Notes: generated from the letters alone by a model not told the origin. A stretch of 64,000 bases of DNA from Polyangiales bacterium (GCA_044229975.1 JBGARZ010000009.1:347947-411946); one strand, 5' to 3'. Counted from the stretch's first letter, positions 24,993 to 45,491 are shown. Translations and numbers: made by a program.

Positions 24993-25011
24993 GCGGAGCA
25001 TCGACCCGACC

Positions 25012-26019
25012 ATGACCCGACGGATCGTTCCCGCTTCACTGCTCGTCACGCTCGCGCTCGCGAGCGGCGTCGCGTCGGCCCAGGACGGCCCCACCGAGGT
25101 CGCGCGGCGCGAGCTCATCGCCCAGGCCGAGGCGGCCGCGACGGCAGGCGATCACGCGCGGGCGGCGCAGCTCGGCGAGCGGGCGGCGCAGCTCCGCGTC
25201 ACGCCCACCATCCAGTACTTCCTCGCGCGCGAACACCTCGCGCTCGAACACCCCGTCGAGGCCCTCGGATACAGCGGGGCCTGCGCGCGCGCCGCCGAGG
25301 CCGACACCACACTTCGCAACCGCGACGGCGTGCTCGCGGCGTGTCGCGCCATCGTGACGACGACCGAGGCCCAGGTGGGACGGGTGACGGTCCACGTCCC
25401 GTCCGATGCGCCGGCGGGGCTCACGGTGCGCCTGCGCGGCGCGGCGTTTCCGTCGACGCTCTTCGACGTGGCGTACCCCGTGGCGCCGGGCACCGTGGTG
25501 CTCGAAGCGAGCGCGCCGGGTCACCTGCCGCTGCGCCGCGAGGCGACCGTCGCCGCGGGTCACACGGAGACGCTCGACGTGCGCCTCGAAGCGGAGCCCA
25601 CGGTGGTGGCGCCGACGCCTCCGGTCGCGCCCGCGGTGGTGGCGGTGGTCGTCCCGCCGCGCGTCGCCGCACCGATGCCGCGCAGCTACAGCATCGGGCC
25701 GTGGATGGTTGTTGGTGGTGGGGCGGCGGCGTTCATCCTGAGCGGGGTGTTCTATGGGTTGGCGTCGAGCGAGCTGAGCGCCCGCGATGGGCTGTGTCCC
25801 GCCCCTTGTGTGGACCCAGGCCCCGAGGCGCGCGCACACGACGCCAGCTACGGCGAACACATCGAGCGAACCAACGTCGCGCTCGGCGTCGGCGCGGCGC
25901 TCGTCGTGGGCGGTGGGGTGTGGCTGCTCGTCGACCGGCTGAGCCACCGCGCGTCGACGGAGACGACGGTGCGCGCAGTCGTGACGCCGAACTCCATCGG
26001 GCTCGCCGGGCGGTTCTAG
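25012..26019 (+). CDS. secreted/membrane hypothetical protein
   Basis: Signal peptide MTRRIVPASLLVTLALASGVASA and C-terminal TM segments; sits next to the Ser/Thr kinase. Confidence 0.5.
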   Translation: MTRRIVPASLLVTLALASGVASAQDGPTEVARRELIAQAEAAATAGDHARAAQLGERAAQLRVTPTIQYFLAREHLALEHPVEALGYSGACARAAEADTTLRNRDGVLAACRAIVTTTEAQVGRVTVHVPSDAPAGLTVRLRGAAFPSTLFDVAYPVAPGTVVLEASAPGHLPLRREATVAAGHTETLDVRLEAEPTVVAPTPPVAPAVVAVVVPPRVAAPMPRSYSIGPWMVVGGGAAAFILSGVFYGLASSELSARDGLCPAPCVDPGPEARAHDASYGEHIERTNVALGVGAALVVGGGVWLLVDRLSHRASTETTVRAVVTPNSIGLAGRF

Positions 26020-26993
26020 ACGACGGTGACCACGGCCCCGGGCGCGAGGCAGAAGCGCAGCCCGCCGCCCCGTCGATCGAAGAGCGCGGTCGCGTCGATG
26101 CCCTCCTCGGCGAGCGCCTGGCGCAATCGATACAGCAGCGAGTTGAGCTCGACGCGGCCGTTTCTCTCGCCGGGCCAGACGCGCGCGCAGAGCAGGTCTT
26201 CGGGGATGAGCTCGCCCGGCGCGAAGGGCGACGGCGGTCGCAGCAGGCACGCCACCAGATCACAGCGCCGCTCGGACAGCGCCGTCGTGTGCACCTGTCC
26301 ACCAATCTCCACCGTGAGCTGACCGCCGCGCGGCATGAACTCCAGCACCACCCGCACGGCCGCCTTCGCCGCGCCCGGTGATGGCGCGGTCACGCCCGCC
26401 ACCTCCACCTGGCGCGCCCGCACGGTGAGCAGCTCGTCGCGGTACCTGATGCGCGACTCGTCCGCGAGCTCGACGCGCTCGCCCGCCGCGAGGACGCGCT
26501 CGCACCACACGTCCGACCGCAGCGCCGCGAGCACCGGGGCCTCGGCGCCCACGTCGATCGCGAACACCGACGGCTCCCAGCCCACGAAGATGAGGTCGTC
26601 GCGCGCGTCGCCGCCGACCCGGTACGTCGGCCCCGTGAGGTAGTGCAGCAGCCCCGTCTCGCGCTCCAGGAACCACGCCACCTTCACCTCCGCGGGCTCC
26701 GCGGCGGTCTCGTCTTCGCCGACGCGGAAGGTCCACCCGCAGACGTCGACGACGTCGCCCGCGCGCAGCGCCGTCAGCGATCGCCGCTCGGCGCCGTTGA
26801 TGAGCACGGGCTCGCGGCCCAGCGGCAGCATCTCGGCGCCCGCCTCGCTCAGCCGCACGACGGCGTGGTACCGGCTGACCTGCGGTCCTTCGAGGACGAT
26901 GGTGCAGTCGGGGCTGCGACCGATCAGCACCTTCGTGGCGCCGATGGCCACGCGCCCCTGCGCCGTGTCGAGCCAGTAGATCTTGGTGGGCAA
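26016..26993 (-). CDS. FHA-domain protein with C-terminal winged-helix (OmpR/BTAD-like) DNA-binding region
   Basis: FHA motif GRSPDCTIVLEGPQVSRYHAVV; C-terminal LIPEDLLCARVWPGERNGRVELNSLLYRLRQAL resembles trans_reg_C. Confidence 0.7.
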   Translation of the reverse strand: MPTKIYWLDTAQGRVAIGATKVLIGRSPDCTIVLEGPQVSRYHAVVRLSEAGAEMLPLGREPVLINGAERRSLTALRAGDVVDVCGWTFRVGEDETAAEPAEVKVAWFLERETGLLHYLTGPTYRVGGDARDDLIFVGWEPSVFAIDVGAEAPVLAALRSDVWCERVLAAGERVELADESRIRYRDELLTVRARQVEVAGVTAPSPGAAKAAVRVVLEFMPRGGQLTVEIGGQVHTTALSERRCDLVACLLRPPSPFAPGELIPEDLLCARVWPGERNGRVELNSLLYRLRQALAEEGIDATALFDRRGGGLRFCLAPGAVVTVV

Positions 26994-27085
26994 TGTCCTG
27001 GTAGGAAGACCAGGCGCTTCGAGCAGGGGCCGGTCTACCGACCGTTACTTTTGCTCAAGAGGTGGGCACCGCGCAATGGACCTGC

Positions 27086-30000
27086 TCAGGGAAGGGCGCG
27101 AGCGCAGCGGAAGCCGACGTACGGGTTGTCGTTCATCGCGGGCGGGGCCGTGAAGCGCCCCACCGAGAGCAGGCCGTTGGGGTCGCTGTCGCCCCACGAC
27201 CCGCCGCGGACGATGCGATCGGCGGTCAGGCTCAGGTTGCTGAGCGGGTTCAGGTTGGACGACCACGACGGGCGGTAGGACTGGAAGGTGTCCGCCATCC
27301 ACTCGTAGACGTTGCCTGCCATGTCGTTCAGCCCGCCGCTCACGCCGGTGGGGTAGCTGCCCACGCGGCGGGTGCCGCCGCCGTCGGTGCCGCCGCAGCC
27401 GCGCCAGAGGGCGCGGTCGCAGCTGGTGCTCGGAGGGGTGTTGCCCCACGGGAAGAGGCGCCCGGAGACGAGCCCCTCGCTGGGAATCGTGCGACCGCGG
27501 GCCGCGAACTCCCACTCGGCCTCGGTGGGAAGGCGGCCGCCGTCCCACACGCAGAACTCCTGCGCCGCCCAGTAGCTGACGGCGTTCATCGGGTGCGCGT
27601 CGCGCGTCGTCGACGCGGGCGACCAGTTGAACGAGCCCGACTGCGCCCCCGGCGCGACCGCCGCCGCGCCCCAGGCGATGGTGTTCGCCCCGGGGTAGGC
27701 GATGGGCGCCGAGCGCACGGTCGCGAGGTCGCGCGAGCGCACCGACCACCATGCGTTGAAGCGCGCCACGGTGACCTCATAGGTGTCCATCGCGAAGCTG
27801 CCCACCGCGATGCTCGGCTGCTCCGGGGTGCCGCCGTAGAACGACGAGGTCGCGTTCGACCCCACCGTGAAGGTGTCGCCGCCGACGATGGCGACGAGGC
27901 CGCAGCCGGGGGTTCCCGCGACCGCGCAGCTCCGCTGGCCGCAGACGCCTGCGACGCACGCCTCGATGGCGCCGCACACGCGCCCGCAGGCGCCGCAGTT
28001 GTTGCGGTCGGTCTGCGCGTTGACGCAGGTCCCCGCGCAGCTCAACTGGTCGGGCGCGCAGAGGGTGGGACCCTCGGCGTAGAGCGCGGCGATCGCGCAG
28101 GGGCTGAGGGCCGTGTTGTAGAGCCGGGCCTCGTCGACGTCGCCGGCGAAGAAGGGGTCGTTGCCCGCCGCCGTGCCCACGCCGTTGACGTGCACCGCGT
28201 GGCGAACGCCCAGGAGGATCTGCGCCACGTTGGCCCCGTAGGCCTGCATCGTGCCCTGGGTGTAGGCCGCGTAGAGCGCGCCGTTGCGGTAGATCTTGAT
28301 GCTGTTGTCCGCCGCGTAGGCGATCGCGATCATCACGCTCGTGGGGTACGCGACGGTCTCCAGGGCGCCGCCGTTGTTGCCCGGGCTGCGCAGGGCGTAG
28401 TAGCTGGCGCTCTGCCACTGGCGCGGGGTGCCCTCGCCGAAGACGATGGCGTCGAAGAGGTCGTCGCCCGCGATCGGGGTGTCGATCGCGAGCACGCCGC
28501 CCGAGCGCTGCGTGAGGTTCTGCGGGCTGACCCAGGCCACGAGGGTCCGCACGGTCACCGTCTGAGGCATCGCGGCGGTACGGGCGTACTGCGTGATGCC
28601 GTCGAGGCCCAGCCGACCTCCGACCACCGACGCGCCGTTGTAGAGCGTCAGGTGGAGGTTGCCGATCGAGTCGTTCCCGGTGCCGTCGTTGAAGGTCCAG
28701 CGGTGGATCGGCGCGGGAGCCGTCGTCGGCGCGCACCCGCAGGCGCCCGCCGTACAAGCCTGCCCGGCCGCGCACGCCTGGCCGCAGGCGCCGCAGTGGG
28801 CGGTGTTGGCGGTGACGTTGACCTCGCAGCCGTTGGCTGCGGTACCGTCGCAGTTGGCGTAGCCCGCGGCGCACCCGCAGGTGCGGCTACCGGGCGTGTT
28901 GGTGCAGACCTCGTTGGCGGCGCAGTTGCCGTTGTTGGTGGCGCACTCGTTGACGTCGACGCAGGCGCCGCCCGCGAGGGTGTAGCCGGTGTTGCACGCC
29001 GCCGGGGCGCAGGCGCCCGCGAAGCAGGCGGCCGTCCCGTTGGCGACGACGCAGGTGTTGCCGCAGCCGCCGCAGTTGGCGGCGCTGCTCCCGAGGTTGA
29101 CCTCGCAGCCGTCGGTGGAGCTCGCGTTGCAGTTGGCGTAGCCCGGCGCGCAGGTAGCGAGGGCGCAGGCGCCCGCGGTGCACGAGCCGGTGCCGTTGGT
29201 GTACGAGCACGCCACGCCGCAGCCGCCGCAGTGGGCGGCGTTGGAGGCGAGCGTCACTTCGCAGCCATTGCTGCCGTCGTTGTCGCAGTCAGCGAGTCCG
29301 CCGGCGCAGACCGCCGTGGTGCATGAGCCCGCCTGGCAGGTGCGTCCCTGGGTGCAGACCACGCCGCAGCCGCCGCAGTTGGCGCTGTCGGCGTTGGCGT
29401 CGACCTCGCAGCCGTTGGTCGTGTTGCCGTCGCAGTCGCGCTGCCCCGGGGCGCACGCGTAGCCGCACACGCCCGCCGAGCAGGTGGCAGTCGCGGACGG
29501 AGCGTCGTTGCAGACGACCCCGCACGCGCCGCAGTTGCCGGTCTCGGTGGCGGTGGAGACCTCGCAGCCGTTGCCCGCGAGGTGATCGCAGTCGGCGAAG
29601 TTCGCGTCGCACGAGCCGACGCCACACGCACCGTTGCTGCACGCCGCCGTGCCGTTGATGGTGGTGCAGGCAGTCCCGCACGCGCCGCAGTTCGAGGCGT
29701 CGGTGGTGATGGCCACCTCGCAGCCGTTGGCCGCGTTGCCGTCGCAGTTGGCGTAGCCCGCAGCGCACGCGCCCATCACGCACGCACCCGCCGCGCAGGC
29801 GGCGCCGGCGTTCGCGAAGGAGCAGGCGTTCTGGCAGCTACCGCAGTGGGCGGCGCTGGAGCCGAGGGAGACCTCGCAGCCGTTGCTCTCGTCGGCGTCG
29901 CAGTTGGCGAGGCCCGCGGTGCAGGTCGTGGCCGAGCACGCCCCGCTCACGCAGGTGCGACCGTCGGTGCAGGCGTTGCCGCAGACGCCGCAGTTGGCGC

Positions 30001-32488
30001 CGTCCGTGGTGATCGCCACCTCGCAGCCGTTGGCGGCGTTGCCGTCGCAGTCGGCGTGCGTCGCGTCGCAGGTGTACCCGCAGGTCGCGCCGCCGCAGGT
30101 CGCGGTGGCGTTGGCGGGCACGTCGCAGGCGGTCGCGCAGGCGCCGCAGTGGGCGAGGTCGGAGGTCAGCGAGACCTCGCAGCCGTTGGCCGGGTTGCCG
30201 TCGCAGTTCGCCCAGCCGGCGTCACACGCGCCGAGCGCGCAGACGCTGGCACCGCACACGCCCGTGGCATGCGCGTAGGTGCAGCGGGTGCCGCAGCCGC
30301 CGCAGTTGCTCGCGTCGTTGCCGAGCGCGATCTCGCAGCCGTTGGCCTGGGTGCCATCGCAGTCGGCATAGCCCATGTCGCAGACCGTGAAGCCGCACGA
30401 CCCTTCGGTGCACACCGGAGCGGCGTTGGCGAAGGAGCACGCGTTGCCGCACGCCCCGCAGTGGCCGCTGTCGGTCGCGGGCGTGGTCTCGCAGCCGTCG
30501 GAGAGGAGCCCGTTGCAGTCGGCGTGACCGGCCGAGCACACCGCCGTCGAGCAGGCGCCCGACTGGCAGGTGGTGGCGTTGGTGCAGACCGTTCCGCAGG
30601 CGCCGCAGTGCGAGCCGCTGGTGGTGGTGTCGACCTCGCAGCCGTTGCTCGCCACGCCGTCGCAGTTGGCGTAGCCCGCTTCGCAGGTGATGCCGCAGGT
30701 GCTCGCGCCGCAGGTCGGCGTCGAGTGCGGGCCCGAGGCGCAGGTCACGCCGCAGGCGCCGCACGAGGTGACCGACGAGAGGTCGGTCTCGCAGCCGGTG
30801 GCCGCGTCGCCGTCGCAGTTGGCGAAGCCGGTCGAGCAGGCCCCGACCGCGCACGCGCCCGCCGCGCACACCGCGGTGGCGTTGGAGAGCGAGCAGGCGC
30901 TGCCGCACGCACCGCAGTGGGCGGCGCTGGTGTCGAGCGCGACCTCGCAGCCATTGGCCGCGATGCCGTCGCAGTTGGCGTAGCCCTCGGCGCAGCTCCC
31001 GATGGCGCACGCGCCCGCCGCGCACACCGGCTCGGCGTTGGCGAGGGAGCAGGTGTTGCCGCACGCGCCGCAGTGGGCGGTGTCCGTGGCAGGAACGGTC
31101 TCGCAGCCGTTGGCCGCGCTGCCGTCGCAGTTGGCGAAGCCGGGGTTGCAGGTTCCGACCGCGCACGCTCCCGCCGCGCAGGCCGCGGTAGCGTTGGCGA
31201 CCGCGCACGCGTGCTGGCAGGCCCCGCAGTGCGCGGGGTCGCTGGCGAGCGAGACCTCGCAGCCGTCCGCGGCGGAGGTATTGCAGTTGGCCTGCTGGGC
31301 CGGGCACACGATGGAAGAGCAGGCGCCGCTCACGCAGGTGCTGGTGCTCCCCGCGCTGGAGGTGCAGACATTGCCCGGGGTGCCGCAGTTGGCGTTGGTG
31401 GTGACGTCGAGCTCGCAGCCGTCGGCGCGGTTGCCGTTGGCGTCGGCCCAGCCCGCCGCGCAGGTGAGCGCGCAGGTGCCGGTGCCGCAGGTCGGGGTCG
31501 AGTGCGCGCCAGAGGTGCACGAGACACCGCAGGCGCCGCAGTTGGTGAGGGTGCGGGTGGAGGTCTCACAGCCGTCCCTGGATCGCCCGTTGCAGTCGCC
31601 GTAGCCCGTCGCGCAGGTGGAGCGGTCGCAGCTGCCGGCGACACAACCCGCGTTGGCATGACCGATGGTGCAGGGCGTCCCGTCGGGCGCGACGGCGAAC
31701 GAGCACCGGCCCTCGCGGGGATCGCAGATGCCCGCGAGGCGACACTGGTCGTCGGGCTCCCGACAGGTGACACCGACGCACTCGCAGACGTCACCTACCC
31801 CGTTGCGGTTGGTGTCCCGCTGGTCGGCGTTGGCCACCGTCGGGCAGTTGTCCTGCCAGTCGAAGCGGCCGTCGCCGTCCTGGTCCACCGCGGGGCGGTC
31901 GATGCGAAACTTGATCTCGAGCGTGTCCCCGTTGAGCAGCGGCGCGAAGTTGACGGTGTCGACGGTGCGAAACTCGCGGGTCGTGCCGACCACGTCGACG
32001 TCCGCGAAGCCGAGCTCGCGGGTGCCGCCGTCGGCCGCCGGGACCATCACGCGCACCCGGTATCGGGCGTCGGTCGAGAGCCGCGCGCGGCGGGTGTCCC
32101 ACTCGACGAGGAAGTACCCGTCGGGGTCGTCGGCGCGGTCGTTGGGTCGGCGCGTGGTGATCGCCTCGACCCGTTGGTCCGACTTCCCGCGCGTGGTGAA
32201 GGTCGCCAGGGTGCGCAGCGTGGTGCCCGCGGCGTTGATCTCGTCGATGCGCACCGTGGGCTCGACCGAGGGGACGAAGTCGCCGAACTGCGCCGGCCGC
32301 GGGACCATCGGCGGCAGGAAGAGGAAGCCCGCCGTCCCGCCGTTGTGGAGCTGGTCGGAGATGACCGCCTGCGCGGCCCGGTGGGTGCCGTCGCCGCCGG
32401 GCGTGTCGGTGGAACTACACCCGACGGCGATCATCAGCGGCACACAGAGTGCTGCCAACGTGGGGCGTCTGGGTCTTCGATTGGGCAT
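27086..32488 (-). CDS. giant multidomain lipoprotein: TSP3 repeats, about 18 Cys-rich 40-aa repeats, cbEGF-like, LamG-like and C-terminal FGE-sulfatase (SUMF1-like) domain
   Basis: Start MPNRRPRRPTLAALCVPLMIAVGCSS with GGGAGAA RBS (ORF-track start 32506 is 6 codons upstream). TSP3 DQDGDGRFDWQDNCPTVANADQRDTNRNGVGD. Repeats of the form CGACG..C....C..GAC..G.C..G.ANCDG...NGCEV. CVDVNECATNNGNC (cbEGF-like). C-terminus contains RGGSW...GFRCAR (FGE-sulfatase fold). Confidence 0.8.
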   Translation of the reverse strand: MPNRRPRRPTLAALCVPLMIAVGCSSTDTPGGDGTHRAAQAVISDQLHNGGTAGFLFLPPMVPRPAQFGDFVPSVEPTVRIDEINAAGTTLRTLATFTTRGKSDQRVEAITTRRPNDRADDPDGYFLVEWDTRRARLSTDARYRVRVMVPAADGGTRELGFADVDVVGTTREFRTVDTVNFAPLLNGDTLEIKFRIDRPAVDQDGDGRFDWQDNCPTVANADQRDTNRNGVGDVCECVGVTCREPDDQCRLAGICDPREGRCSFAVAPDGTPCTIGHANAGCVAGSCDRSTCATGYGDCNGRSRDGCETSTRTLTNCGACGVSCTSGAHSTPTCGTGTCALTCAAGWADANGNRADGCELDVTTNANCGTPGNVCTSSAGSTSTCVSGACSSIVCPAQQANCNTSAADGCEVSLASDPAHCGACQHACAVANATAACAAGACAVGTCNPGFANCDGSAANGCETVPATDTAHCGACGNTCSLANAEPVCAAGACAIGSCAEGYANCDGIAANGCEVALDTSAAHCGACGSACSLSNATAVCAAGACAVGACSTGFANCDGDAATGCETDLSSVTSCGACGVTCASGPHSTPTCGASTCGITCEAGYANCDGVASNGCEVDTTTSGSHCGACGTVCTNATTCQSGACSTAVCSAGHADCNGLLSDGCETTPATDSGHCGACGNACSFANAAPVCTEGSCGFTVCDMGYADCDGTQANGCEIALGNDASNCGGCGTRCTYAHATGVCGASVCALGACDAGWANCDGNPANGCEVSLTSDLAHCGACATACDVPANATATCGGATCGYTCDATHADCDGNAANGCEVAITTDGANCGVCGNACTDGRTCVSGACSATTCTAGLANCDADESNGCEVSLGSSAAHCGSCQNACSFANAGAACAAGACVMGACAAGYANCDGNAANGCEVAITTDASNCGACGTACTTINGTAACSNGACGVGSCDANFADCDHLAGNGCEVSTATETGNCGACGVVCNDAPSATATCSAGVCGYACAPGQRDCDGNTTNGCEVDANADSANCGGCGVVCTQGRTCQAGSCTTAVCAGGLADCDNDGSNGCEVTLASNAAHCGGCGVACSYTNGTGSCTAGACALATCAPGYANCNASSTDGCEVNLGSSAANCGGCGNTCVVANGTAACFAGACAPAACNTGYTLAGGACVDVNECATNNGNCAANEVCTNTPGSRTCGCAAGYANCDGTAANGCEVNVTANTAHCGACGQACAAGQACTAGACGCAPTTAPAPIHRWTFNDGTGNDSIGNLHLTLYNGASVVGGRLGLDGITQYARTAAMPQTVTVRTLVAWVSPQNLTQRSGGVLAIDTPIAGDDLFDAIVFGEGTPRQWQSASYYALRSPGNNGGALETVAYPTSVMIAIAYAADNSIKIYRNGALYAAYTQGTMQAYGANVAQILLGVRHAVHVNGVGTAAGNDPFFAGDVDEARLYNTALSPCAIAALYAEGPTLCAPDQLSCAGTCVNAQTDRNNCGACGRVCGAIEACVAGVCGQRSCAVAGTPGCGLVAIVGGDTFTVGSNATSSFYGGTPEQPSIAVGSFAMDTYEVTVARFNAWWSVRSRDLATVRSAPIAYPGANTIAWGAAAVAPGAQSGSFNWSPASTTRDAHPMNAVSYWAAQEFCVWDGGRLPTEAEWEFAARGRTIPSEGLVSGRLFPWGNTPPSTSCDRALWRGCGGTDGGGTRRVGSYPTGVSGGLNDMAGNVYEWMADTFQSYRPSWSSNLNPLSNLSLTADRIVRGGSWGDSDPNGLLSVGRFTAPPAMNDNPYVGFRCARALP
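28726..31756. repeat. tandem ~120-nt coding repeats (Cys-rich 40-aa units) inside the giant gene
   Basis: Recurrent DNA units such as cgcagccgttggccgcg.tgccgtcgcagttggcgtagcc every ~120 nt; protein repeat ...ANCDG.A.NGCEV... about 18 times. Confidence 0.6.
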
Positions 32489-32666
32489 TGAGGTTCTCCC
32501 TGGCATTGGCCGACCGGGAGCTCACGACTTGTGGGCGTTTGGGCAGCCAACGGGACTCATCGCACGGCGACCATGCGCATCCCGATAGCAGCGTGGTTGC
32601 AGCGGCTCTTGGCCGCGGCGGAAGCGGCGAGGGAATGAGATCCCCCGCCGCTGCTTCAGGTGGGGT

Positions 32667-35600
32667 TCAGGGGCAGGTGAGCGCGGCGCAGGTCGACGGC
32701 GGGTCGGCCGGGCACGGGCCCTCGACCAGTTGAATCTGGTCGAAGTCCGCCGAGCTCCCGACCGGGCCCTGGAAGAGCTGGAACCGCAGGTACACATGCG
32801 TCCAGTCCGCGGGCATGACCATCTGCTTGGGGTACCAGCGCCACGTGTTGTCCGAGACCATCGGGGTGATGGTGCCGCCCAGGTAGTCGCTGTCGCCGCA
32901 ACCGCCGAGGCCCCAGAACTGCTCGTAGATCGACGCCTGACCCGCCGCGTTGGAGCGGTGGAAGCCGACGTAGGGGACGGCGCCGGGCGTTCCGCGCACC
33001 CACGACGAGAGGCAGTAGGTGCGCCCGCCGACCACCGGGGTCGGGACGTTGGTGAACACCCGACCGCCGCCCTGCGGAAGAAGCGCCGTCTCGTGGAAGT
33101 ACGTCCCCGCGCACTGCGGGCTCGCCGACGCGAGGGTCAGCGGACGCGCGTCGATGGAGTGCCAGGCCCCGGCGCCCGACTCCCAGTTCTCGGTGAAGGT
33201 GACGCTCGTGCACACCGGGCAGGCCGCGCCGGAGCAGCGCGTCGGCGGCGTGCAGATGGTGTTGACGCAGGCGCCCGCCGAGCACGCCTGATGGTAGGCG
33301 CACACGTTGCCGCACGCGCCGCAGTTGCTCGTGGTGGTGACGCTGGTGCACACGCCGCCGCAGCTCGCGAAGCCCGCGTTGCAGGCGCAGGTGCGGCTGC
33401 CCGGCGTGTTGGTGCAGGTCGAGTTCGTCCCGCAGCCGCCGTTGCTGGTGAGGCACTCGTTGACGTCGGCGCAGGTCACGCCGTTGCCCGTGTAGCCCGC
33501 GTTGCACGCGCAGGTGCGGCTGCCCGGGGTGTTGGTGCAGGTCGCGTTGGCGCTGCACCCGCCGTTGCCGGTCGCGCACTCGTTGACGTCGACGCAGGCG
33601 CCGCCCGCGAGGGCGTAGCCGGTGTTGCACGCCGCCGGGGCGCAGGCGCCCGCGAAGCAGGCGGCCGTCCCGTTGGCGACGACGCAGGCGTTGCCGCAGC
33701 CGCCGCAGTGCGCGGCCGTGCTCCCGAGGTCGACCTCGCAGCCGTCCGCGGAGCCCGCGTTGCAGTTGGCGTAACCCGCGTTGCAGCTCGCGAGCGCGCA
33801 GGAGCCCGCGGTGCACGACCCGGCGCCGTTGGCGTAGTTGCAGGCGACGCCGCAGCCGCCGCAGTGGGCGGCGTTGGCGTCGAGCGTCACCTCGCAGCCG
33901 TTGGCCGCAGCGTGATCGCAGTCGGCGAGGCCCGCGGTGCAGACCGCCGTGGTGCACGAGCCCGCCTGGCAGGTGCGGCCCTGGGTGCAGACCACCCCGC
34001 AGCCGCCGCAGTTGGCGCCGTCGGCGTTGGCGTCGACCTCGCAGCCGTTGGCCGCGCTGCCGTCGCAGTCGCGCTGCCCCGGGGCGCACGCGTAGCCGCA
34101 CACGCCCGCCGAGCAGGTGGCCGTCGCGGACGGAGCGTCGTTGCAGACGACCCCGCACGCGCCGCAGTTGCCGGTCTCGGTGGCGGTGGAGACCTCGCAG
34201 CCGTTGCCCGCGAGGTGATCGCAGGCAGCCGTTGCCCGCGAGGTGATCGCAGTCGGCGAAGTTCGCGTCGCACGAGCCGACGCCACACGCACCGTTGCTG
34301 CACGCCGCCGTGCCGTTGATGGTGGTGCAGGCAGTCCCGCACGCGCCGCAGTTGGAGGCGTCGGTGGTGATGGCCACCTCGCAGCCGTTGGCCGCGTTGC
34401 CGTCGCAGTTGGCGTAGCCCGCAGCGCACGCGCCCATCACGCACGCACCCGCCGCGCAGGCGGCGCCGGCGTTCGCAAAGGAGCAGGCGTTCTGGCAGGT
34501 TCCGCAGTGGGTGGCGTCGGCGTCGAGCGCGACCTCGCAGCCGTTGCTCTCGTCGGCGTCGCAGTTGGCGAGGCCCGCGGTGCAGGTCGTCGCCGAGCAG
34601 GCCCCGCTCGCGCAGGTGCGACCCTGGGTGCAGGCGTTGCCGCACGCGCCGCAGTTCGCGCCGTCGGTGGTGGTCGCGACCTCGCAGCCGTTGCTCGCGA
34701 GACCGTCGCAGTCGGCGTGGGTGGCGTCGCAGGTGTAGCCGCACGATCCGCCGCCGCAGGTCGCGGTGGCGTTGAACGGGACGTCGCACGCCGTCGCGCA
34801 GGCGCCGCAGTGGGCGAGGTCGGAGGTCAGCGAGACCTCGCAGCCGTCGGCCGGGTTGCCGTTGCAGTCGGCCCAGCCCGCATCACACGCGCCGAGCGCG
34901 CAGGCGCTGGCGCCGCACACGCCCGTCGCGTGGGCGTAGGTGCAGCGCGTGCCGCAGCCGCCGCAGTTGTCGGCGTCGTTGCCGAGCGCGATCTCGCAGC
35001 CGTTGGCGCGAACGCCGTCGCAGTCGGCGTACCCGACGTCGCACACCACGAAGCCGCAGACGCCCGCCGTGCACTGGGGCGCGGCGTTGGCGAAGGAGCA
35101 CGCGTTGCCGCACGCCCCGCAGTGGCCGCTGTCGCTGTCCGGCGTGGTCTCGCAGCCGTCGGCCGCGAGGCCGTTGCAGTCGGCGTGACCGGCCGCGCAC
35201 ACCGCCGTCGAGCAGGCGCCCGACTGGCAGGTGGTCGCGTTGGTGCAGACCGTCCCGCACGCGCCGCAGTTCGATGCGCTCGTGGTGGTGTCGACCTCAC
35301 AGCCGTTGGCCGCGTTGCCGTCGCAGTTGCTCCAGCCCGCTTCGCAGGTGAGGCCGCAGGCGCCCGCGCCGCAGGTCGGCGTCGAGTGGGGCCCCGACGC
35401 GCAGGTCACGCCGCAGCCGCCGCAGGAGGTGACCGCCGAGAGGTCGGTCTCGCAGCCGCTCGACGCGTTGCAGTCCGCGAAGCCCGGCGCGCAGGCGCCG
35501 ATGACGCACGCGCCCGCCGCGCAGACCGCCGAGGCGTGCGAGAGCGAGCAGACGTTGCCGCACGCGCCGCAGTGGGACGCGCTGCTGTCGAGCGCGACCT

Positions 35601-37146
35601 CGCAGCCGTTGGCCGCGCTGCCGTCGCAGTTGGCGTAGCCGGGCGCGCAGCTCCCGATGGCGCAAGCGCCCGCCGCGCAGACCGGCGAGGCGTTGGCAAA
35701 GGAGCACACGTTGCCGCAGGCGCCGCAGTGGGCGACGTCGGTGGCGGGCGTGGTCTCGCAGCCGTTGGAGGGATTGCCGTCGCAGTTGGCGTGGCCGGGA
35801 GCGCACGACCCGAGAGCGCACGCACCGGCCGCGCAGACCGCGCTGGCCTGAGCGTAGGAGCAGGCGTTGCCGCAGGCGCCGCAGTGGGCGACGTTGGAGG
35901 CGGGGTCGACCTCGCAGCCGTTGGCCTCGTTGCCGTCGCAGTTGGCGAGGCCGCCGGTGCAGACCGTGGCCGAGCACGCGCCCGCGATGCAGGTGCGACC
36001 CGCGGTGCAGGCGTTGCCTGCGGTTCCGCAGTTGGCGTTGGTGGTCACGTCGAGCTCACAGCCGTCGGCGCGGTTGCCGTTGGCGTTGGCCCAGCCGGGC
36101 GCGCAGGTGAGGGCGCAGGTACCGGTCGCGCAGGTGGGCGTCGAGTGGGCGCCCGCGGTGCACGCGACGTTGCAGCCGCCGCAGTGGGTGAGCGTGTTGG
36201 TGGCGACTTCGCAGCCGTCGGCCGCCGAGCCGTTGCAGTTGGCGCGGCCTGCGTCGCAGGTGGCGACGCCGCATGTGCCGTTGGTGCAGACCGCCGTCGC
36301 GTTGGCGAGCGAGCAGGCCGACCCGTTGGGCGCGTTGGGGTTGGAGCACAGGCCGGTGGCGGGGCTGCACACGCCCGCGGTGTGACAGGTCCCGCTGGTG
36401 GTGCAGGTGACGCCGAGGCACTCACAGGCGTCGCCCTGGCCGTCGTGGTTGGTGTCGAGCTGGTTGGCGTTGGCCACCGTGGGGCAGTTGTCCTGCCAGT
36501 CGAGGTCGCCGTCGCCGTCGCGGTCCACCGCGGGTCGGTCGATGCGGAACTTGATGCGCAGCACGCGCCCGTTGATGAGCGGGGAGAAGTTCACCGTGTC
36601 GACGCTGCGGAATTCCTGCTGGTTGCGGACGACGTCCACGTCCGCGAAGCCGAGCTCGCGGGTGCCGCCGCCGACCGCCGGGACGAGCACGCGCACGCGG
36701 TAGCGGGCGGTGGGCGAGAGGCACTCGTTGTTGGTCTTCCAGCGCGCGAGGAAGTAGCCCTCCGGGTCGGTGTCGCCGTCGTCGTCGTCCCAGTCGCAGG
36801 GGGAGCCCTGGTAGTGGATGCGGAGGCGCTCGTTGCCGGGGCCGCTGTTGGCGGTGAAGGTCGCGAGCGTGCGGATGGTGACACCCGCAGCGTTGACCTC
36901 GTCGATGCGAACGGTGGGGTTCACCGTCGGCAGGAAATCGCCGAACTGCGCCGGTCGCGGGACCATCGGCGGCAGGAAGAGGAAGCCCGACGTCCCACCG
37001 TTGTGGAGCTGGTCGGAGATGACCGCCTGCGCGGCGCGATGGGTCCCGTCGCCGCCGGGTGTGTCGGTGGAACTACACCCGACGGCGAGGAGGAGCGGCA
37101 CACAGATGGCCGCGAGCGTGGGTCGCCTGAGTCGTCGACTGGACAT
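32667..37146 (-). pseudogene. paralog of the giant lipoprotein, disrupted by a +28-nt frameshift (or assembly artifact); C-terminal cbEGF x2 and galactose-binding-like domain instead of an FGE domain
   Basis: N-terminal frame (ORF 32656-37224, start MSSRRLRRPTLAAICVPLLLAVGCSS at 37146 with GGGAG RBS) runs into Arg-rich out-of-frame sequence after about 34225. The correct C-terminal frame is ORF 32667-34292. The shift coincides with a 28-nt tandem duplication absent from the paralog. Confidence 0.7.
34197..34252. repeat. 28-bp perfect tandem duplication (gcagccgttgcccgcgaggtgatcgcag x2) causing a frameshift
   Basis: Directly visible. The paralogous site 29564-29591 in the intact gene has a single copy; flanks are identical. 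Confidence 0.9.
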
Positions 37147-37273
37147 GGAGTCTCCCTCGTGTGGTCGCGGAGAGACCCACGGAGTGTGAGCGCCCCAGTG
37201 ACCAACGGGAGCCATGCCAGACAACCGTCCAGAGACCGATGGCAGGTCGGTGGCGACGCGCGCCGCAGCGCGT

Positions 37274-37753
37274 TCAGACGCCCGTCGGGATTGTCAGCCC
37301 GTGCTCCGTCGCAAACCGCCGCGCCCCATCGGCGTCCTTGCGCAGCTTCCCCGCCCACAGCTCGCGCTCGGGGCACACCGGCACGCCGTCGATCCAGCGC
37401 GCGTCACGCACCAGCGCGCCGACGTCGAAGTCCGCCTCCTCGAAGGTCGCGTCCACCTGCAACCCGTCGCACACCGCGCGCACGTACCACCGCCCCTCGA
37501 GCGAGCGCTCCGTCCACCGCGCGTCCCAGGGCTCACCCCAGCAGGTCACCGCGCCTCCCCGGCTCTCGGCCCACGCCACGAAGCCCCGCAGCGCGCCCTC
37601 CGCCAGCAGCACGTCGCTGTCCGTCAACGCGTACGCCTCGCGCAGTCGCGGGTGCGCCAGCAGCAGCCCCGCGCTCCCGATGGTGACGAAGCCGACGCCC
37701 GCCTCCGCGAGCGATCGCAGCAGCGCGAAGTGGCGCTCGTTGTCCGCGCTCAC
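37274..37753 (-). CDS. nucleotidyltransferase-fold-like small protein (GS...DxD motif)
   Basis: GTG start at 37753 overlapping the upstream stop (GTGA). 159 aa with IGSAGLLLAHPRLREAYALTDSDVLL resembling the pol-beta-type NTase / ANT(2'')-like motif; the N-terminal part of ORF 37274-38383 is shadow. Confidence 0.35.
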   Translation of the reverse strand: MSADNERHFALLRSLAEAGVGFVTIGSAGLLLAHPRLREAYALTDSDVLLAEGALRGFVAWAESRGGAVTCWGEPWDARWTERSLEGRWYVRAVCDGLQVDATFEEADFDVGALVRDARWIDGVPVCPERELWAGKLRKDADGARRFATEHGLTIPTGV

Positions 37754-38829
37754 GGCTCGAAATAGTTGCCCACGACCTTCGCGTTGGGAACCCAGTCCCC
37801 ACACAGGTCGCCGCTCGAATGGAACACCAGCTTCTGCAACACCCCGCCCCTCACCTCGTCGTGGTGCGCCACGTAGCTCGACCCCTCCAGCACCACCTCC
37901 ATCACACCCCGCCGATAGACCTCGTTGTAGTAGTAGTAACCCGACGTCACGCCCACGAGGCTCCACCCCTCGCGCGCCGTCCCCTCCTCGCTCAACACCG
38001 CGTCCATCAGCGCGCGGGCCGACACCCGATGGCGGGCGATCCAGCGCGTCTCGCGGTTGTCCCGGTAGATGTCCCCGAGCTCGCTCAGCGCGCGAAACAC
38101 CACGCGCCGCACGCCCAGCGCCTCGGCGCCGTCGAGGTACGCCTCGACCTCCTCCACCGTCGACACGCCCTGCCCGTTGAGAACGCACACCAGCATCACC
38201 TCGACGCCCGCCGCGAGCACCCGCCGCACCGTCTCGTCGAAGGCCGCTCCACCGCGAATCGCCACGTCGCGATCGAAGCGCATCACCCGCTCGTTGATGC
38301 GCTCGTCGAGGTGGCAGCGCGACAGCTCCACCCGGTCGAAGCGCGCCCGCGCGAGGTCGGCCGCGAGCCCCGCATCGGCGCACAGCCCGCTGCCGTTGGT
38401 GTACAGCACCCTCGCCGGAAACAGCGCCCCGTGCTCACCCACCAGCGTGAGCAATCGACGCAGCCACGAGGGGTCGGAGGTCGCTTCGAGGCCGCTCAGG
38501 CTCAGGCCCATCTCGAAGCCAGCGAGCTCGCGCCACGCGCGGTCGAGCCCGGCGAAGTAGCGGTCGTGGTCGTCGATGGTGCGCTTCGCGGTGAGGCGCT
38601 CGGCGTCGAGGCGCATGAGCTCCTCGGAGCAGAACGAGCAGTGCGCGTTGCACGGCGTCGGGTTGGCGTAGGGCGTAAACGTCAGCCCCGGCCGCAGCAG
38701 AAAGGGCCTTCCCCGCAGCACACGCTCGACGGGCTCCTTCGGCTCGAAGGTGCGCCAGCGGCCGTCGCGAAACTCCCCCGGGCTCGTCACCGTCGCGGCG
38801 TGGCGAAACTGGTTGGGCCGGAAGCTCAT
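37750..38829 (-). CDS. viperin-like radical SAM enzyme
   Basis: 359 aa from MSFRPNQF. CNAHCSFC (viperin CNYKCGFC). SLSGLEAT (GGE motif). VLYTNGSGL (viperin SIVSNGSLI). LSRCHLDERIN (ISCDSFDEEVN). LVCVLNG (KINSVIN). VRRVVFRA (PVRWKVFQ). Motif spacing matches human viperin to within a few residues, with +10 aa between the CxxxCxxC and GGE motifs. No SPASM Cys cluster. ATG overlaps the upstream stop (ATGA). Confidence 0.6.
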   Translation of the reverse strand: MSFRPNQFRHAATVTSPGEFRDGRWRTFEPKEPVERVLRGRPFLLRPGLTFTPYANPTPCNAHCSFCSEELMRLDAERLTAKRTIDDHDRYFAGLDRAWRELAGFEMGLSLSGLEATSDPSWLRRLLTLVGEHGALFPARVLYTNGSGLCADAGLAADLARARFDRVELSRCHLDERINERVMRFDRDVAIRGGAAFDETVRRVLAAGVEVMLVCVLNGQGVSTVEEVEAYLDGAEALGVRRVVFRALSELGDIYRDNRETRWIARHRVSARALMDAVLSEEGTAREGWSLVGVTSGYYYYNEVYRRGVMEVVLEGSSYVAHHDEVRGGVLQKLVFHSSGDLCGDWVPNAKVVGNYFEP

Positions 38830-40826
38830 CGCGGCGCCTCGTCGAGCGTGACGCTCCCGGCCATCGCCGTGCAGATGCTGCGCGGCCCGTCGAAGGACTC
38901 CCGCGAGTGCCCGTACCGCACGTTGTCCACCAGCAGCAGATCGCCCGCCCCGTAGTGGACGCCCTCGCGCGTCGCGAGGAAGCCGTTGAGCAGCAGGTCG
39001 AGCTCGCCGTCGGTGAACTCCTCGCCGTTGCCGCGCGGATACCTCCGATATCCGTTGCGCAGCGCCGGCGCGTCGAGGCCCACGCGCGGAAACAGCAGCG
39101 CTCCCTGGTGGAACGCGGGCACCCGGATGCGGGTCATCAACGTGGCGAAGCCGTCGCCTTCCTCGACCCACCAGCAGTCGTCGAACTGCAACGTCGACGC
39201 GCGGCAGCGGGCCTCGGCCTCGACGCGATCGGTGGTCTGGAAGCGGTCCTGCCATGAGCGGAAGGTGTTGCTCGCCTTCTCGGGATGCCCCTCGTCGAGA
39301 AAGCCCATCTCGATGAGGTAGCCGTGTCGTCGCAGTGACTCCAGCAGCGCCACGCCCTCGTCGCCGCGCGCCCGCAGCCACGCTTCGAGCCCCGCCGCCG
39401 AGTGCACGAAGGTGCGACCGCCGCGCTCCGTGCCCGCCGCCTCCGACGAGAAGAACATCACCCGCCCCGGCATCCGCCGCTGGTAGAGCACCTCGTTGTG
39501 CGGCAGCAGCCACAGGTGTCGCGGGTAGTCGTCCGTCGCCCGCAGCTCGCGGCTCACCCGCTTCCTGACGGTGCGACCGCTGTGCAGTCCGCCCCACGGA
39601 AACGCATCGTCCCCGCCGAAGCGCAGCGCACCGAGCACCTCGTCGGGAAGGCTCGTTCCGCCGAGCCCGGTGCGCCGCACATGAAGCGCACCGTAGCGCT
39701 CGAACTCCCTGCGAATGGCGTCGAGCGTCGGGCCGTCGAGCACCCCATAGGCATCGAAGGTGCGCGCCGTGAAACGCGTCGACCAGTCGACCAGCGCGGG
39801 CGCAAACGCGTACCGCACGCCGCCGTGGGTGGCGCAGCGAGCGAGGGGCGCGGGTGCCTCGCGCGGAGCTGGTTCGCACGGGTCGCGTAGCTCACCCGCC
39901 ATGCCGACGAGCACCTCGCGTGCTCCTGAGAAGGGCTCGCGCGAGTGGCCGTAGCGGAGGTTGTCGAAGAGCACGAGGTCGCCCGCGCGCAGCGTCGTGC
40001 CTTCGCGCGTCGCGAGGTAGGCGGCGCGCAGGAGAGACTTGTCGGCGTCGTCGAGCTCGTCGCCGTTGCCCAGCGGAAAGCGCCGGTAGCCGTTGCGCGC
40101 CATCGGTCCGTCGAGCGCGATGCGGGGGAAGCGGAGGTAGCGCTGACCGTCGCGGGGGTCGGTCCACCACGGGTTGAGCGTGATGCGGGTCATCAGCGTG
40201 CGGTCGTCGCGCCACCAGCACGCGTCGTACTCGTCGGTGCGCTCGCGCGCGGTGCGCAGCGCGGCGTCGGGGTCGTCGGTGGCGAAGCGCTCCTGCCAGG
40301 ACTGGAAGTAGTTGTCGGCCTTGGCGGGGTGCTCGCGATCGAGGAAGCCCGTCTCGATGGAGAGCCCGTGGCGGGCGATGCGATCGAGCAGCGACGCGCC
40401 CGCAACGCTCTGTCGAAGCGCGGACTCGACGGCGTGGGCGGAGTGCAGGAAGACCCGACCACCGTGAGTGGGAGCGACGGTGCAGGCGATGAGAACCCAC
40501 CGCGGAGAGCGCCGCTGGTACTGCACCTCGTTGTTGGGCAGCAGGTAGAGATCGGGCGGATAGTGGTCCATGCGCCGTAGCCCCGGCGCCGCCCACTTCT
40601 CCTGCCGCGCGGCGCTCGTGCGACCGCCCGCCGTGAAGCGCTCGGCCTCGCCGAAGCCCAGCGGATCGAGCACCCGTTGCAGCGTGTCGATGGCCGAGAG
40701 CCCGGTGTTCTCGACGTGCACCGCGCCGTAGGTGACAAGCGCGGCGCGGATCTCGGCCAGCCGTCGTGCGTCCAGTGCTCCGCCGGCGTCGAAGGTGCGG
40801 GCGCTGAAGCGTTCGTCGCCCATCAT
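38826..40826 (-). CDS. tandem-didomain Fe(II)/2-oxoglutarate oxygenase of the TauD/TfdA / clavaminate-synthase-like family
   Basis: Start MMGDERFSARTFDAGG (AGGAAGA RBS 8 nt upstream). Two ~320-aa repeats, each with LLP[N/H]NEV.YQRR...GGR.F.HS and [FV]DN.RYGHSRE (TauD-like hhhWDNR...H.R). Repeat 1 has N-x-E and repeat 2 has H-x-E at the first triad position. The N-terminal 426 codons of ORF 38826-42104 are Arg-rich shadow. Confidence 0.6.
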   Translation of the reverse strand: MMGDERFSARTFDAGGALDARRLAEIRAALVTYGAVHVENTGLSAIDTLQRVLDPLGFGEAERFTAGGRTSAARQEKWAAPGLRRMDHYPPDLYLLPNNEVQYQRRSPRWVLIACTVAPTHGGRVFLHSAHAVESALRQSVAGASLLDRIARHGLSIETGFLDREHPAKADNYFQSWQERFATDDPDAALRTARERTDEYDACWWRDDRTLMTRITLNPWWTDPRDGQRYLRFPRIALDGPMARNGYRRFPLGNGDELDDADKSLLRAAYLATREGTTLRAGDLVLFDNLRYGHSREPFSGAREVLVGMAGELRDPCEPAPREAPAPLARCATHGGVRYAFAPALVDWSTRFTARTFDAYGVLDGPTLDAIRREFERYGALHVRRTGLGGTSLPDEVLGALRFGGDDAFPWGGLHSGRTVRKRVSRELRATDDYPRHLWLLPHNEVLYQRRMPGRVMFFSSEAAGTERGGRTFVHSAAGLEAWLRARGDEGVALLESLRRHGYLIEMGFLDEGHPEKASNTFRSWQDRFQTTDRVEAEARCRASTLQFDDCWWVEEGDGFATLMTRIRVPAFHQGALLFPRVGLDAPALRNGYRRYPRGNGEEFTDGELDLLLNGFLATREGVHYGAGDLLLVDNVRYGHSRESFDGPRSICTAMAGSVTLDEAPR

Positions 40827-40840
40827 CACGAGAGGTCTTC

Positions 40841-42061
40841 CTACGTCGAGCCCGGCGTGCGCAGCTTGTCGCTGCCGACCCACTCGTCGTAGCTGTCGTT
40901 CCAGCCCTCGTAGTGGATGCGGTGGAGCGACGCGCGCACCTCGCGGATCGTGGCCGCGTACCACCGCCGTCGCCAGCGGGCCTCGACGCTCGTGCCCACC
41001 GCGTAGACCACCGGCGTGTACGCCCGGATGCGGTCGGCCCCGACCCACTCGTCGAACAGGTGATTGAACTCCGCGTACCGGACAAACACCTGCCCGTTGG
41101 CGCGGCGCTCCAGCACGATGGCGCGGTACCACCGGCCCTGGTAGCGCACCTCGATGGTCTCGCCCTCGCCCATCGCCGGCGCGCTGGTGCGCGGACCCAG
41201 CGCCCACGACGTCGCGAAGCCGCCGCGGGTGGTGGCCGTCGAGCGCTGCTGGTCGAGGTACGCGAGGCGGGTCTCGGCGTGCGTAGCCACGTCGGCGAAG
41301 GTGATGGCCGCGTCGCCGTTGCGATCGGCCGCGGCGGCACCGCGGATGCCGTCGAGGAGGCAGTCGGTGAAGGTCCACGCGCCGGTCGACTGCTCGCTCG
41401 CGTCGCTCGAAGCGAGCACCGCGGCCGGGACGTTGAGGCGACTCATCACCTCGGCGTCGAGCGCGCCCGAGTAGCAGCAGTCGGCGGTGAGCATCACGGC
41501 CGCGCCGCGAAACGACGCGAGCGCCTGGGCGATGCTCGACAGGCCCCAGCACGTCGCCTGGGCGTCGAGGGTTCCGTCGTAGGGGACGAAGAAGCTCGCG
41601 GTGGCGCCGCCCATGCCCGCGTCGCGGTCGGCGGAGACGCGCATCCCGTGGCCCGCGAAGTAGAGCCAGAGCAGCTCGCCCGGCTGGGTGGCGGCCACCG
41701 CTGCGGCGAAGCCCGCGACCACCGCCGCGCGCGTCGCAGCCCGGTCTTGCAGGTAGGTGATGTTGCCCCGCGGAACGCCCCGCGCCGCGAAGGCCTCGAC
41801 GAGCTCCACGTCGCGCCGCCCTTCGGCGGTAAACGACCCGAAGGTCTCGCTGTCGGCCCACGCGAGCAGCCCCACCGCGAAGACGCGGGTGCGCGCCGGA
41901 TCGAAGGCCGCGCTCACCGGCAGCACGTCCGCGCCGACGGAGGTACCCGCGTCCCGCGCGGCGCCCGACGACCCGCCGTTGCCACAGGCGGCGAGCGGTG
42001 TGGCGAGGGCGGCCCCGCAGAGGCCGAGGACGCTGCGACGGGTGAGTCGGGTTTCGCTCAT
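40841..42061 (-). CDS. caspase-like (peptidase C14) TAT-exported lipoprotein with tandem C-terminal Tudor/Agenet-like domains
   Basis: Twin-arginine signal TRRSVLGLCGAALATPLAACG. Caspase dyad motifs LWLYFAGHGM and LTADCCYSGAL. Two repeats RWYRAIV...VRYAEFNHLFDEWVGADRIR / RWYAATIREV...IHYEGWNDSYDEWVGSDKLR. Confidence 0.65.
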   Translation of the reverse strand: MSETRLTRRSVLGLCGAALATPLAACGNGGSSGAARDAGTSVGADVLPVSAAFDPARTRVFAVGLLAWADSETFGSFTAEGRRDVELVEAFAARGVPRGNITYLQDRAATRAAVVAGFAAAVAATQPGELLWLYFAGHGMRVSADRDAGMGGATASFFVPYDGTLDAQATCWGLSSIAQALASFRGAAVMLTADCCYSGALDAEVMSRLNVPAAVLASSDASEQSTGAWTFTDCLLDGIRGAAAADRNGDAAITFADVATHAETRLAYLDQQRSTATTRGGFATSWALGPRTSAPAMGEGETIEVRYQGRWYRAIVLERRANGQVFVRYAEFNHLFDEWVGADRIRAYTPVVYAVGTSVEARWRRRWYAATIREVRASLHRIHYEGWNDSYDEWVGSDKLRTPGST

Positions 42062-42127
42062 TGGGGTGGCACCGACGGTACGGTCGGCGCGACGGCGAGC
42101 GCAATGCCGGGGGCGGGAGGGGTGCGA

Positions 42128-43153
42128 CTACCAGGCGCCGTCGACGTTCTTCATGAACTCGTACGGGTAGCCGAGCTCGAAAGCGCTGGCGCGGTCGAGG
42201 GACTCGGTGACCGACGCCGGGAGGTCGAGGTCGGCCGCGCCGAGGTTCTCATCGAGCTGCGCCACGGTGCGCGCGCCGAAGATCACCGACGACACCGCCG
42301 GGCGCGACAGCAGCCACGCAAGCGCCACCTGACCCGGCGGCCGATCGAGCTCCGTCGACGCGGCGACCAGGGCCTCGACGATGTTCCAGTTGCGGTCCTT
42401 GTCGAAGTCCGCGTAGCGCTGCTTCCACTGCTCCAGACGGCTGCCCGCGGGGGGCGCCTGGCCGCGGCGGTACTTGCCCGTGAGCAGACCGCCCGCGAGG
42501 GGAGACCACGGCAGGATGCCCACCCCGTGGCGCACGCACAGCGGCCGGTGCTCGCGTTCGAGGTCGCGCACCGCGAGGCTGTACTGCGCTTGCAGCGTCA
42601 CGTGCCGCGCGAGGTTGCGCTTGTCCGACACCATCAGCGACTCCATCAGCCGGTAGGCCGCGTAGTTGGAGGCGCCGAAGTAGACGATCTTGCCCGCGGT
42701 GATGGCGTCGTCGAGGGCGCGCAGCAGCTCCTCCTCGGGCGTCTTCAGGTCCTGCATGTGGATCTGGTAGAGGTCGATGCGATCGGTGCCGAGGCGCTTG
42801 AGGCTCTGGTCGATGGCGCGGGTGATGCGCATGCGCGAGGCGCCCGTCCCGTTGGGCCCCTCGGCCATGCGAAAGCGCCCCTTGGTGGCGAGCACCACCT
42901 TCTCACGCACGCCGCGCTCGGCGATCCAGCGACCGAGCAGGCGCTCGGAGAGACCGTCCTGGCCGTAGACGTCGGCCGTGTCGATGAAGTTGATGCCCGC
43001 CGCGAGGGCCCGGTCGAGCACCGCGAAGCTCTCCTCCTCGCTCGCCCCCACCTTGTGCATGAACGACTTCTCGTCCGCCTCCCCGAAGGTCATGGCGCCG
43101 AGACAAAGAACCGACACCTGCGTGCCGGTCGAACCGAGCTGTCGATATCGCAT
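42128..43153 (-). CDS. aldo/keto reductase
   Basis: 341 aa; AKR signatures GAMTFGE, IDTADVYG, LYQIHMQD, ILPWSPLAGGLLTGKY. Confidence 0.85.
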   Translation of the reverse strand: MRYRQLGSTGTQVSVLCLGAMTFGEADEKSFMHKVGASEEESFAVLDRALAAGINFIDTADVYGQDGLSERLLGRWIAERGVREKVVLATKGRFRMAEGPNGTGASRMRITRAIDQSLKRLGTDRIDLYQIHMQDLKTPEEELLRALDDAITAGKIVYFGASNYAAYRLMESLMVSDKRNLARHVTLQAQYSLAVRDLEREHRPLCVRHGVGILPWSPLAGGLLTGKYRRGQAPPAGSRLEQWKQRYADFDKDRNWNIVEALVAASTELDRPPGQVALAWLLSRPAVSSVIFGARTVAQLDENLGAADLDLPASVTESLDRASAFELGYPYEFMKNVDGAW

Positions 43154-43258
43154 GGCGCGGGAGGGTAGCGCCGTGCTCGGCCGCGTGTCGCGCCCCGTCC
43201 GGGCATCCCCTCGCCGGGGCGGCGCTCCGTCGGTGCCGGACGTCGGACCCGCGGCGGG

Positions 43259-44311: not shown

Positions 44312-44572
44312 GTCGAACTCCCGAGTCAGGTGCTGTGGTTCGCGCGCGATCGTTCGGACTCCGACGAGTGCTCGTACCGCGGCGCCCGCACACCATGCAC
44401 TCGGCGCCGACGACGCACCAGATGCCGCGTGGTGCACGGGCAGTGAAGCAAAGGTCGTCACTCCGCCGCCATGGCGGCCGCCACCGCCGCCACCCCCCGC
44501 GGAGGACCATCACCTCGATCACTGAAGCAGATTCGCGATGGCACAAACGTCGCTCAGAGCACACCCATCGCC

Positions 44573-45466: not shown

Positions 45467-45491
45467 GCGCGCCTCCTCCCCGCCTACCGCC

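Follow-up and report, generated by a model that had tools for sequence, protein, structure and literature searches.

Is a perfect 28-bp tandem duplication inside a giant lipoprotein gene a genuine mutation that has inactivated the gene, a reversible switch, or a product of assembly? The question is raised by a stretch of 64,000 nucleotides from a Polyangiales bacterium (GCA_044229975.1, JBGARZ010000009.1:347947-411946), which we call the window. The gene concerned, gene B, lies on the minus strand and forms a tandem pair with a downstream paralog; judged from their sequences, both encode giant MXAN_6577-like predicted lipoproteins with cysteine-rich repeats, in an uncultured Myxococcota/Polyangiales-like bacterium. 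The downstream member, gene A (27086..32506, minus strand), is intact; its open reading frame (ORF) encodes 1806 aa, and the public call P0126 starts from a Met six codons downstream and has 1800 aa. We consider it likely that the duplication in gene B is genuine, very recent, lineage-specific, unprogrammed and associated with recombination, and that it has effectively made gene B a fresh pseudogene or truncation allele.

The duplication and the reading frame of gene B

The 28-mer GCAGCCGTTGCCCGCGAGGTGATCGCAG (plus-strand reading) is present twice, head to tail, at 34197-34224 and 34225-34252, in the plus-strand order ...GGAGACCTC GCAGCCGTTGCCCGCGAGGTGATCGCAG GCAGCCGTTGCCCGCGAGGTGATCGCAG TCGGCGAAG.... 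The array had been reported in a first-pass annotation of the window, and it was confirmed by an exact search and by Tandem Repeats Finder, which returned exactly 2.0 copies with a 100% match and a score of 112. Three exact matches to the 28-mer were found in the window, two in the gene B array and one in gene A (29564-29591, minus strand). The single paralogous copy with identical flanks described earlier was thereby recovered, the flanks of the array being exact matches to gene A over 74 nt and 101 nt on its two sides. No other perfect two-copy tandem repeat of the window has a period >12 nt. The GC content of the window is 72%, and from this composition the chance expectation of a perfect 28-nt tandem duplication in 64 kb was estimated at ~1e-10. 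The array is preceded by C, whereas the last base of the unit is G, and it is followed by T, whereas the unit opens with G. As these neighbouring bases do not extend the repeat, its register is fixed, and the junction between the copies, GATCGCAG|GCAGCCGT, is without microhomology.

In the orientation of the gene, the first copy (34225..34252, minus strand; CTGCGATCACCTCGCGGGCAACGGCTGC) is read in the native frame and supplies the last base of an Asp codon and the nine codons CDHLAGNGC, residues 966-974. The frame is lost after residue 974 because 28 = 27 + 1, and the second, extra copy (34197..34224, minus strand), where the frameshift starts, is translated with an offset of one base (LRSPRGQRL RGLHRHRDRQ...). 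A product started at 37146 has 974 native residues and then 522 from the shifted frame. The native 5' part comprises 974 codons at 34225..37146 (minus strand), with the ATG at 37146, whereas the native 3' part (32667..34196, minus strand; 509 codons plus stop) is now out of frame with this start. The shifted-frame tail as encoded (32656..34224, minus strand; 522 codons) contains 29.5% Arg and stops at 32656, 11 nt past the native stop (32667). This agrees with the earlier statement that the unit length is not a multiple of three and that the frame from 37146 runs into Arg-rich shifted sequence.

Removal of one 28-mer in silico resulted in a 4452-nt ORF with no internal stop (37146..32667, minus strand). 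The earlier expectation of a continuous frame was correct, although the product has 1483 aa and not ~1490. The restored ORF is colinear with the orthologs P0124 (1486 aa), P0001 and P0002 (1488 aa), and was aligned end to end to P0124 and P0002. The first-pass annotation had also described the ORF at 32667-34292 (minus strand) as lacking a start. It does begin with a GTG, which is used by the 541-aa call P0122 of the public protein collection; however, this GTG is not a genuine start because the first 23 residues are out-of-frame sequence and there is no signal peptide, so that the claim stands for a true start only.

With the frame shifted, the protein would lose its cEGF modules and its CBM-like C-terminal domain and would carry a 522-residue Arg-rich nonsense tail instead, and loss of function is the probable consequence. 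ORF-based gene callers see no truncation, as the shifted frame runs on to the end of the gene; the public collection holds P0122 and no N-terminal product, and the 1496-aa chimeric product was absent from it in an exact look-up. The frameshift is hidden from such callers by the high GC content. Gene B should accordingly be annotated as a frameshifted pseudogene or a suspect site, and neither as the 541-aa protein nor as a ~1500-aa chimera with 522 nonsense residues. A promoter and terminator scan of 32300-37600 returned nothing informative.

The open shifted frame could also be taken as a sign of programmed recoding or dual coding, by a +1 ribosome shift in the second copy or through an Arg-rich frame that is itself functional. 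The 522 open codons are the sole point in its support, and they are explained by the rarity of T at codon position 3 (3.3%). Over 1483 codons, we counted only 5 and 9 stops in the two alternative frames of gene B; long open frames of this kind are the rule at 72% GC and unremarkable in this window. A conserved slippery motif is missing, the second copy being absent elsewhere, and a search of 5.8 billion proteins with the shifted-frame tail gave matches solely to the 59 native residues with which the query opened. Since the orthologs and the conspecific allele are in one continuous frame and the tail has no homologs in that collection, recoding was rejected as exceedingly improbable.

Single-copy relatives and the conversion tract

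A near-identical relative of the locus, designated L018, comes from a conspecific sister strain (GCA_044228995.1, contig JBGATW010000066.1). It is 99.58% identical to window positions 47146..22667 over 24,482 columns, and its genes follow one another as in the window: TauD, a pair of small genes, B, A, and an FHA-domain gene. It carries one 28-mer in B and one in A. The intact gene B protein P0124 falls in the 90%-identity cluster of P0122. The ortholog L001, ~92% identical (protein P0001; GCA_044228995.1, contig JBGATW010000002.1), is also single-copy and canonical, and ten further homologs are canonical at the site, with the pattern ...CD(H/Q/G)L..NGCEVS followed by 6 residues and CG.CG, and with the canonical 10-residue spacing.

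Zero differences were found between the window and L018 from 34167 down to 29997, a range that covers the 3' part of gene B minus its first ~30 nt. The displaced 3' part has thus undergone no decay relative to the sister strain, which indicates that the duplication is very recent. Between species, the ratio of nonsynonymous to synonymous substitution rates (dN/dS) of this 3' part in the native frame is 0.28-0.34; therefore, the native frame is functional and under purifying selection. Among the options offered by the first-pass annotation, recent pseudogenisation is the one favoured by the 99.58%-identical single-copy conspecific, the canonical orthologs, and the absence of downstream decay.

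The locus shares with known frameshift pseudogenes caused by short tandem duplications a perfect head-to-tail copy, a unit length indivisible by three, orthologs and a paralog with one copy each, and an ORF that is restored by removal of one copy. It differs from them in three respects: the junction lacks microhomology, an unusual outcome for simple replication slippage; the site is in the core of an active paralog conversion tract; and the shifted frame is open to the gene end, so that callers report either one giant chimera or the 541-aa piece, with no obvious truncation. Gene B is a new instance of a well-known type of event, and it represents no new kind of system or element.

The conversion tract was delimited, in gene B coordinates, by a four-way comparison in which the two paralogs of each strain were aligned and L001 served as outgroup. 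Genes A and B are ~84% identical over 3.7 kb and 97-100% identical in the block around the duplication. A homogenised core at 34123..34394, equivalent to 29490-29733 of gene A, shows no difference among the four copies except one single-nucleotide polymorphism (SNP; 34354) and the indels, and the duplication sits in the middle of this ~270-bp region. At 34395-34474, gene A of the window equals both B copies, whereas the sister-strain A differs from all three and equals L001 at 4/9 sites. At 34477-34530, the sister-strain B has A-type bases, whereas the window B keeps the ancestral B state, as does L001. The sister-strain A is also B-like at 34645-34657. Most differences between the strains are clustered where one paralog took the sequence of the other (34395-34657 / 29734-29996).

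These patterns show that the patchwise similarity of A and B has changed, apparently in both directions, since the 99.6%-identical strains split, and the link of the duplication to gene conversion is well supported by the aligned copies. As in concerted evolution of tandem paralogs by gene conversion, near-identical blocks occur in 84%-identical neighbours, with different patches in two 99.6%-identical strains; the difference is that the core here also bears length mutations in both strains.

The relatives showed some further features of their own. A single bin of metagenome-assembled genomes (MAGs), GCA_044228995.1, contains two syntenic versions of the locus, L001 at ~92% and L018 at 99.6% identity to the window, and it probably mixes two related populations. 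The L001 contig (JBGATW010000002.1) ends 38 bp past the gene B ortholog, presumably at a break caused by the A/B repeat. Further upstream, at 38608-39794, the window and L018 differ by 37 substitutions in 1.2 kb (the TauD-domain gene and the next gene), with 97.1% identity against a background of 99.6%. At the variant sites, the window agrees with L001 at 23 and L018 agrees with L001 at 10; this segment looks like an imported recombination tract, with the change mainly in the sister strain.

Lesions in two strains and the origin of the duplication

Over the 24.5 kb compared with L018, every indel falls inside 34168-34252. The sister strain has a lesion of its own (12920-12965 of L018, in the region of 34168-34196 of the window), which lies at about 34168-34191 in window coordinates. 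It consists of an insertion of 7 nt, GTTCCAC, 11 nt downstream of the unit and, 13 nt further, a change of GGCA to CGCGCC (+2). The total of +9 nt is in frame, and in P0124 the peptide STFHRHRDPRHCGACG, which occurs in no homolog examined, replaces the canonical STATETGNCGACG. No donor for the odd segment or for the junction 12-mer was found in any fetched locus, so conversion from another paralog among these loci is not the source of the L018 segment. Together with the neighbouring GGCGCG, the CGCGCC change makes up a perfect 6-bp inverted repeat (CGCGCC-ACTGC-GGCGCG), a suggestive fit to quasi-palindrome template switching that serves as a lead and not as proof. The probability of two independent random events within 85 bp in 24.5 kb was estimated, post hoc, at ~0.007, and a local mutational hot spot is a modest possibility.

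The duplication itself is most likely a side effect of recombination, or of the repair of a DNA break, in a stretch where reciprocal conversion with the adjacent paralog is frequent. The route would be overlapping repair synthesis followed by blunt end-joining, staggered-break fill-in, or another template-switch error. Simple slippage is a poor fit because the junction lacks microhomology, and slippage between the CTGC tetramers at the unit ends would give an in-frame duplication of 24 nt, not 28 nt. From the earlier proposal of a slipped-strand or gene-conversion origin, the connection to conversion is therefore retained, whereas simple slippage finds poor support.

Two other causes were considered and rejected. 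A transposon-excision footprint or target-site duplication does not account for the array, as 28 nt is too long and there are no element remnants; to our knowledge, all known target-site duplications are far shorter. A hairpin or cruciform cause was suggested by a 9-bp imperfect stem, ACCTCGCGG/CTGCGAGGT, that the canonical sequence can form over the right duplication boundary. In folding energy the stem was no stronger than shuffled controls (z = -0.3 to -1.1) and is kept as a lead only.

Several observations weigh against a genuine duplication. The array is known from one assembly; the paralogs are identical for ~270 bp at the site, a setting in which assembly and short-read polishing are most prone to error; and the repair route set out above is one that we infer. 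Additionally, there was no independent sighting: the 30-nt duplication junction was not found in the JGI metagenome contigs (nor was the 35-nt single-copy allele), and the shifted tail was absent from the collection of 5.8 billion protein sequences. The position in paralog-identical sequence and the missing second sighting also speak for an alternative in which consensus building, short-read polishing or local reassembly in the paralog-identical stretch produced an assembly artefact and gene B is really intact. Read placement is ambiguous in the A/B-identical core, and the other conspecific assembly is also odd (+7/+2 nt) within 60 bp, so both assemblers could have struggled there.

However, De Bruijn assemblers are unable to create a junction k-mer that is missing from the reads, and long-read errors are typically homopolymer indels, whereas this copy of 28 nt is perfect. 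Apart from 34168-34252, the two assemblies are indel-free in 24.5 kb, and no second long, perfect tandem duplication is present in the window, which argues against a generally error-prone assembly. The nearest SNPs that distinguish A from B, with the B-specific bases G at 34122 and C at 34354, are 74 and 101 nt off, close enough for the junction to be tied to gene B by ordinary 150-nt reads. We regard an artefact as unlikely and keep the genuine duplication as the preferred explanation, under which the variant would exist in the cells as it does in the assembly.

The first-pass annotation had also raised a phase-variation-like switch, in which frequent gain and loss of the duplication would vary the C-terminal binding domains of the surface lipoprotein. 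A predicted surface protein is inactivated here without other damage, and the 28-nt repeats could recombine or slip so that the duplication is lost precisely. The conspecific strain shows the non-duplicated state, and its compensated frameshift, at a distance of 11-35 nt, may be a sign that the frame has been lost and regained here more than once. As the shifted frame is open to the gene end, Rho-dependent polarity on the downstream gene A may be avoided.

A mechanistic precedent is cap3A of Streptococcus pneumoniae, for which the summary in PMC11163986 describes capsule phase variation via reversible tandem duplications (Waite et al. 2001). In both cases, an intragenic tandem duplication turns the gene off and its precise loss would turn it on. 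The difference is that a cap3A-type switch would be marked by high-frequency switching, mixed populations and recurrence, whereas gene B offers one observation in a metagenome-type assembly, with one allele seen per assembly. Recurrence of length change in gene B amounts to one further event, the +7/+2 nt of L018 within 60 bp, which is of another kind than a duplication.

Against a switch, the array has just two copies of a long unit and no repeat tract. The canonical form is shared by the ten homologs and the ortholog with 92% identity, with neither a conserved repeat nor length variation. Each genome presents one state from a single observation, and reversibility is common to any tandem duplication and hence provides no evidence of function. 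Nothing speaks for a programmed switch, and we consider this option improbable. A broader version appears very doubtful to us: the ~270-bp core would be a hot spot of break-induced conversion and length mutation, with the 28-bp duplication and the L018 +7/+2 as successive off and on states of a stochastic cap3A-like switch. If this were true, the switch would set the display of the cEGF and carbohydrate-binding-like C-terminus on a myxobacterial surface lipoprotein.

Simple-sequence-repeat contingency loci of the Neisseria/Haemophilus type resemble gene B in that a frameshift in a surface-protein gene results from a change in repeat copy number. They differ in having many units of 1-9 nt, whereas gene B has a 28-nt unit in two copies and an ancestral state without the repeat. 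With one copy of the unit in every relative examined, assignment to this class was rejected.

Taken as a genuine duplication, the locus provides a small, clean case of a recent gene-inactivating duplication inside an active paralog conversion tract, with a different, compensated lesion at the same spot in a sister strain. If reads confirmed both lesions, it would become a natural case for recombination-associated mutagenesis in large GC-rich myxobacterial genomes.

The lipoprotein family and other repeats of the window

Both paralogs share one domain order: a signal sequence, a conserved N-domain of ~200 aa, a thrombospondin-type-3-like (TSP3-like) motif, and an array of cysteine-rich repeats of ~52 aa. 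The signal sequences are lipoprotein-like (...LLLAVGC in gene B and ...LMIAVGC in gene A). A candidate lipobox with an invariant Cys, MSSRRLRRPTLAAICVPLLLAVGC|SS, was spotted by eye only and is kept in the homologs. Against the NCBIfam model NF041328 (MXAN_6577-like cysteine-rich protein; curated cut-off of 100 bits), P0124, the intact B allele, scored 170.8 bits in 11 stretches and P0126, gene A, scored 201 bits in 12 stretches. The two proteins resemble the MXAN_6577-like proteins in being far above this cut-off and in being predicted cell-surface lipoproteins of a myxobacterium; the conserved lipoprotein N-domain and the swappable C-terminal domains are features of this subfamily itself. 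Cysteine-rich repeats occur in the myxobacterial TraA receptor too. The PA14 domain and the MYXO-CTERM sorting signal, both features of TraA, were not detected in the two paralogs.

The C-termini are where the paralogs diverge in domain content: gene A ends with LamG, Stig1 and FGE-sulfatase domains, and the 3' part of gene B encodes more Cys-rich repeats, two cEGF-like modules, and a C-terminal domain with a sub-threshold CBM_4_9 match. The homologs come from uncultured Myxococcota/Polyangiales MAGs and have the N-domain and repeats in common, with widely differing C-terminal domains. The family is modular, one set of N-domain, TSP3-like motif and MXAN_6577-like repeats being joined to FGE-sulfatase/LamG, cEGF plus CBM-like, Kelch, RCC1, FG-GAP or fibrinogen-like C-termini, and Polyangiales MAGs contain several paralogs per genome. 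A scan of the genome collection with the N-terminal 396 aa of gene B resulted in 14 loci, all in Myxococcota MAGs, with a best identity of 78%; no conspecific was among them.

The FGE-sulfatase/C-type-lectin-fold domain at the end of gene A made it a candidate target of a diversity-generating retroelement. This was rejected, as its last 415 nt have no second copy in the window and a YxDD motif was found in none of the long ORFs.

One homolog of the Cys-rich repeats, P0006 (2347 aa; 40% identity over 68% of the query), is annotated as coming from the rotifer Adineta steineri, which points to either horizontal transfer or contamination. Cys-rich repeats as markers of cross-domain transfer are discussed in a bioRxiv preprint of 2026 (10.64898/2026.06.07.730663).

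Two further repeats were recorded in the window. Among tandem repeats with periods of at least 12 nt, just one more is 100% identical, the 12-nt unit CCGTGGTCGCGC, with 3.1 copies at 24817-24853 and a length that is a multiple of three. An array with a 189-nt period (21785-22942; ~4-6 copies, 67-69% identity) lies inside the gene for a 633-aa FG-GAP repeat protein (21499-23400, minus strand).

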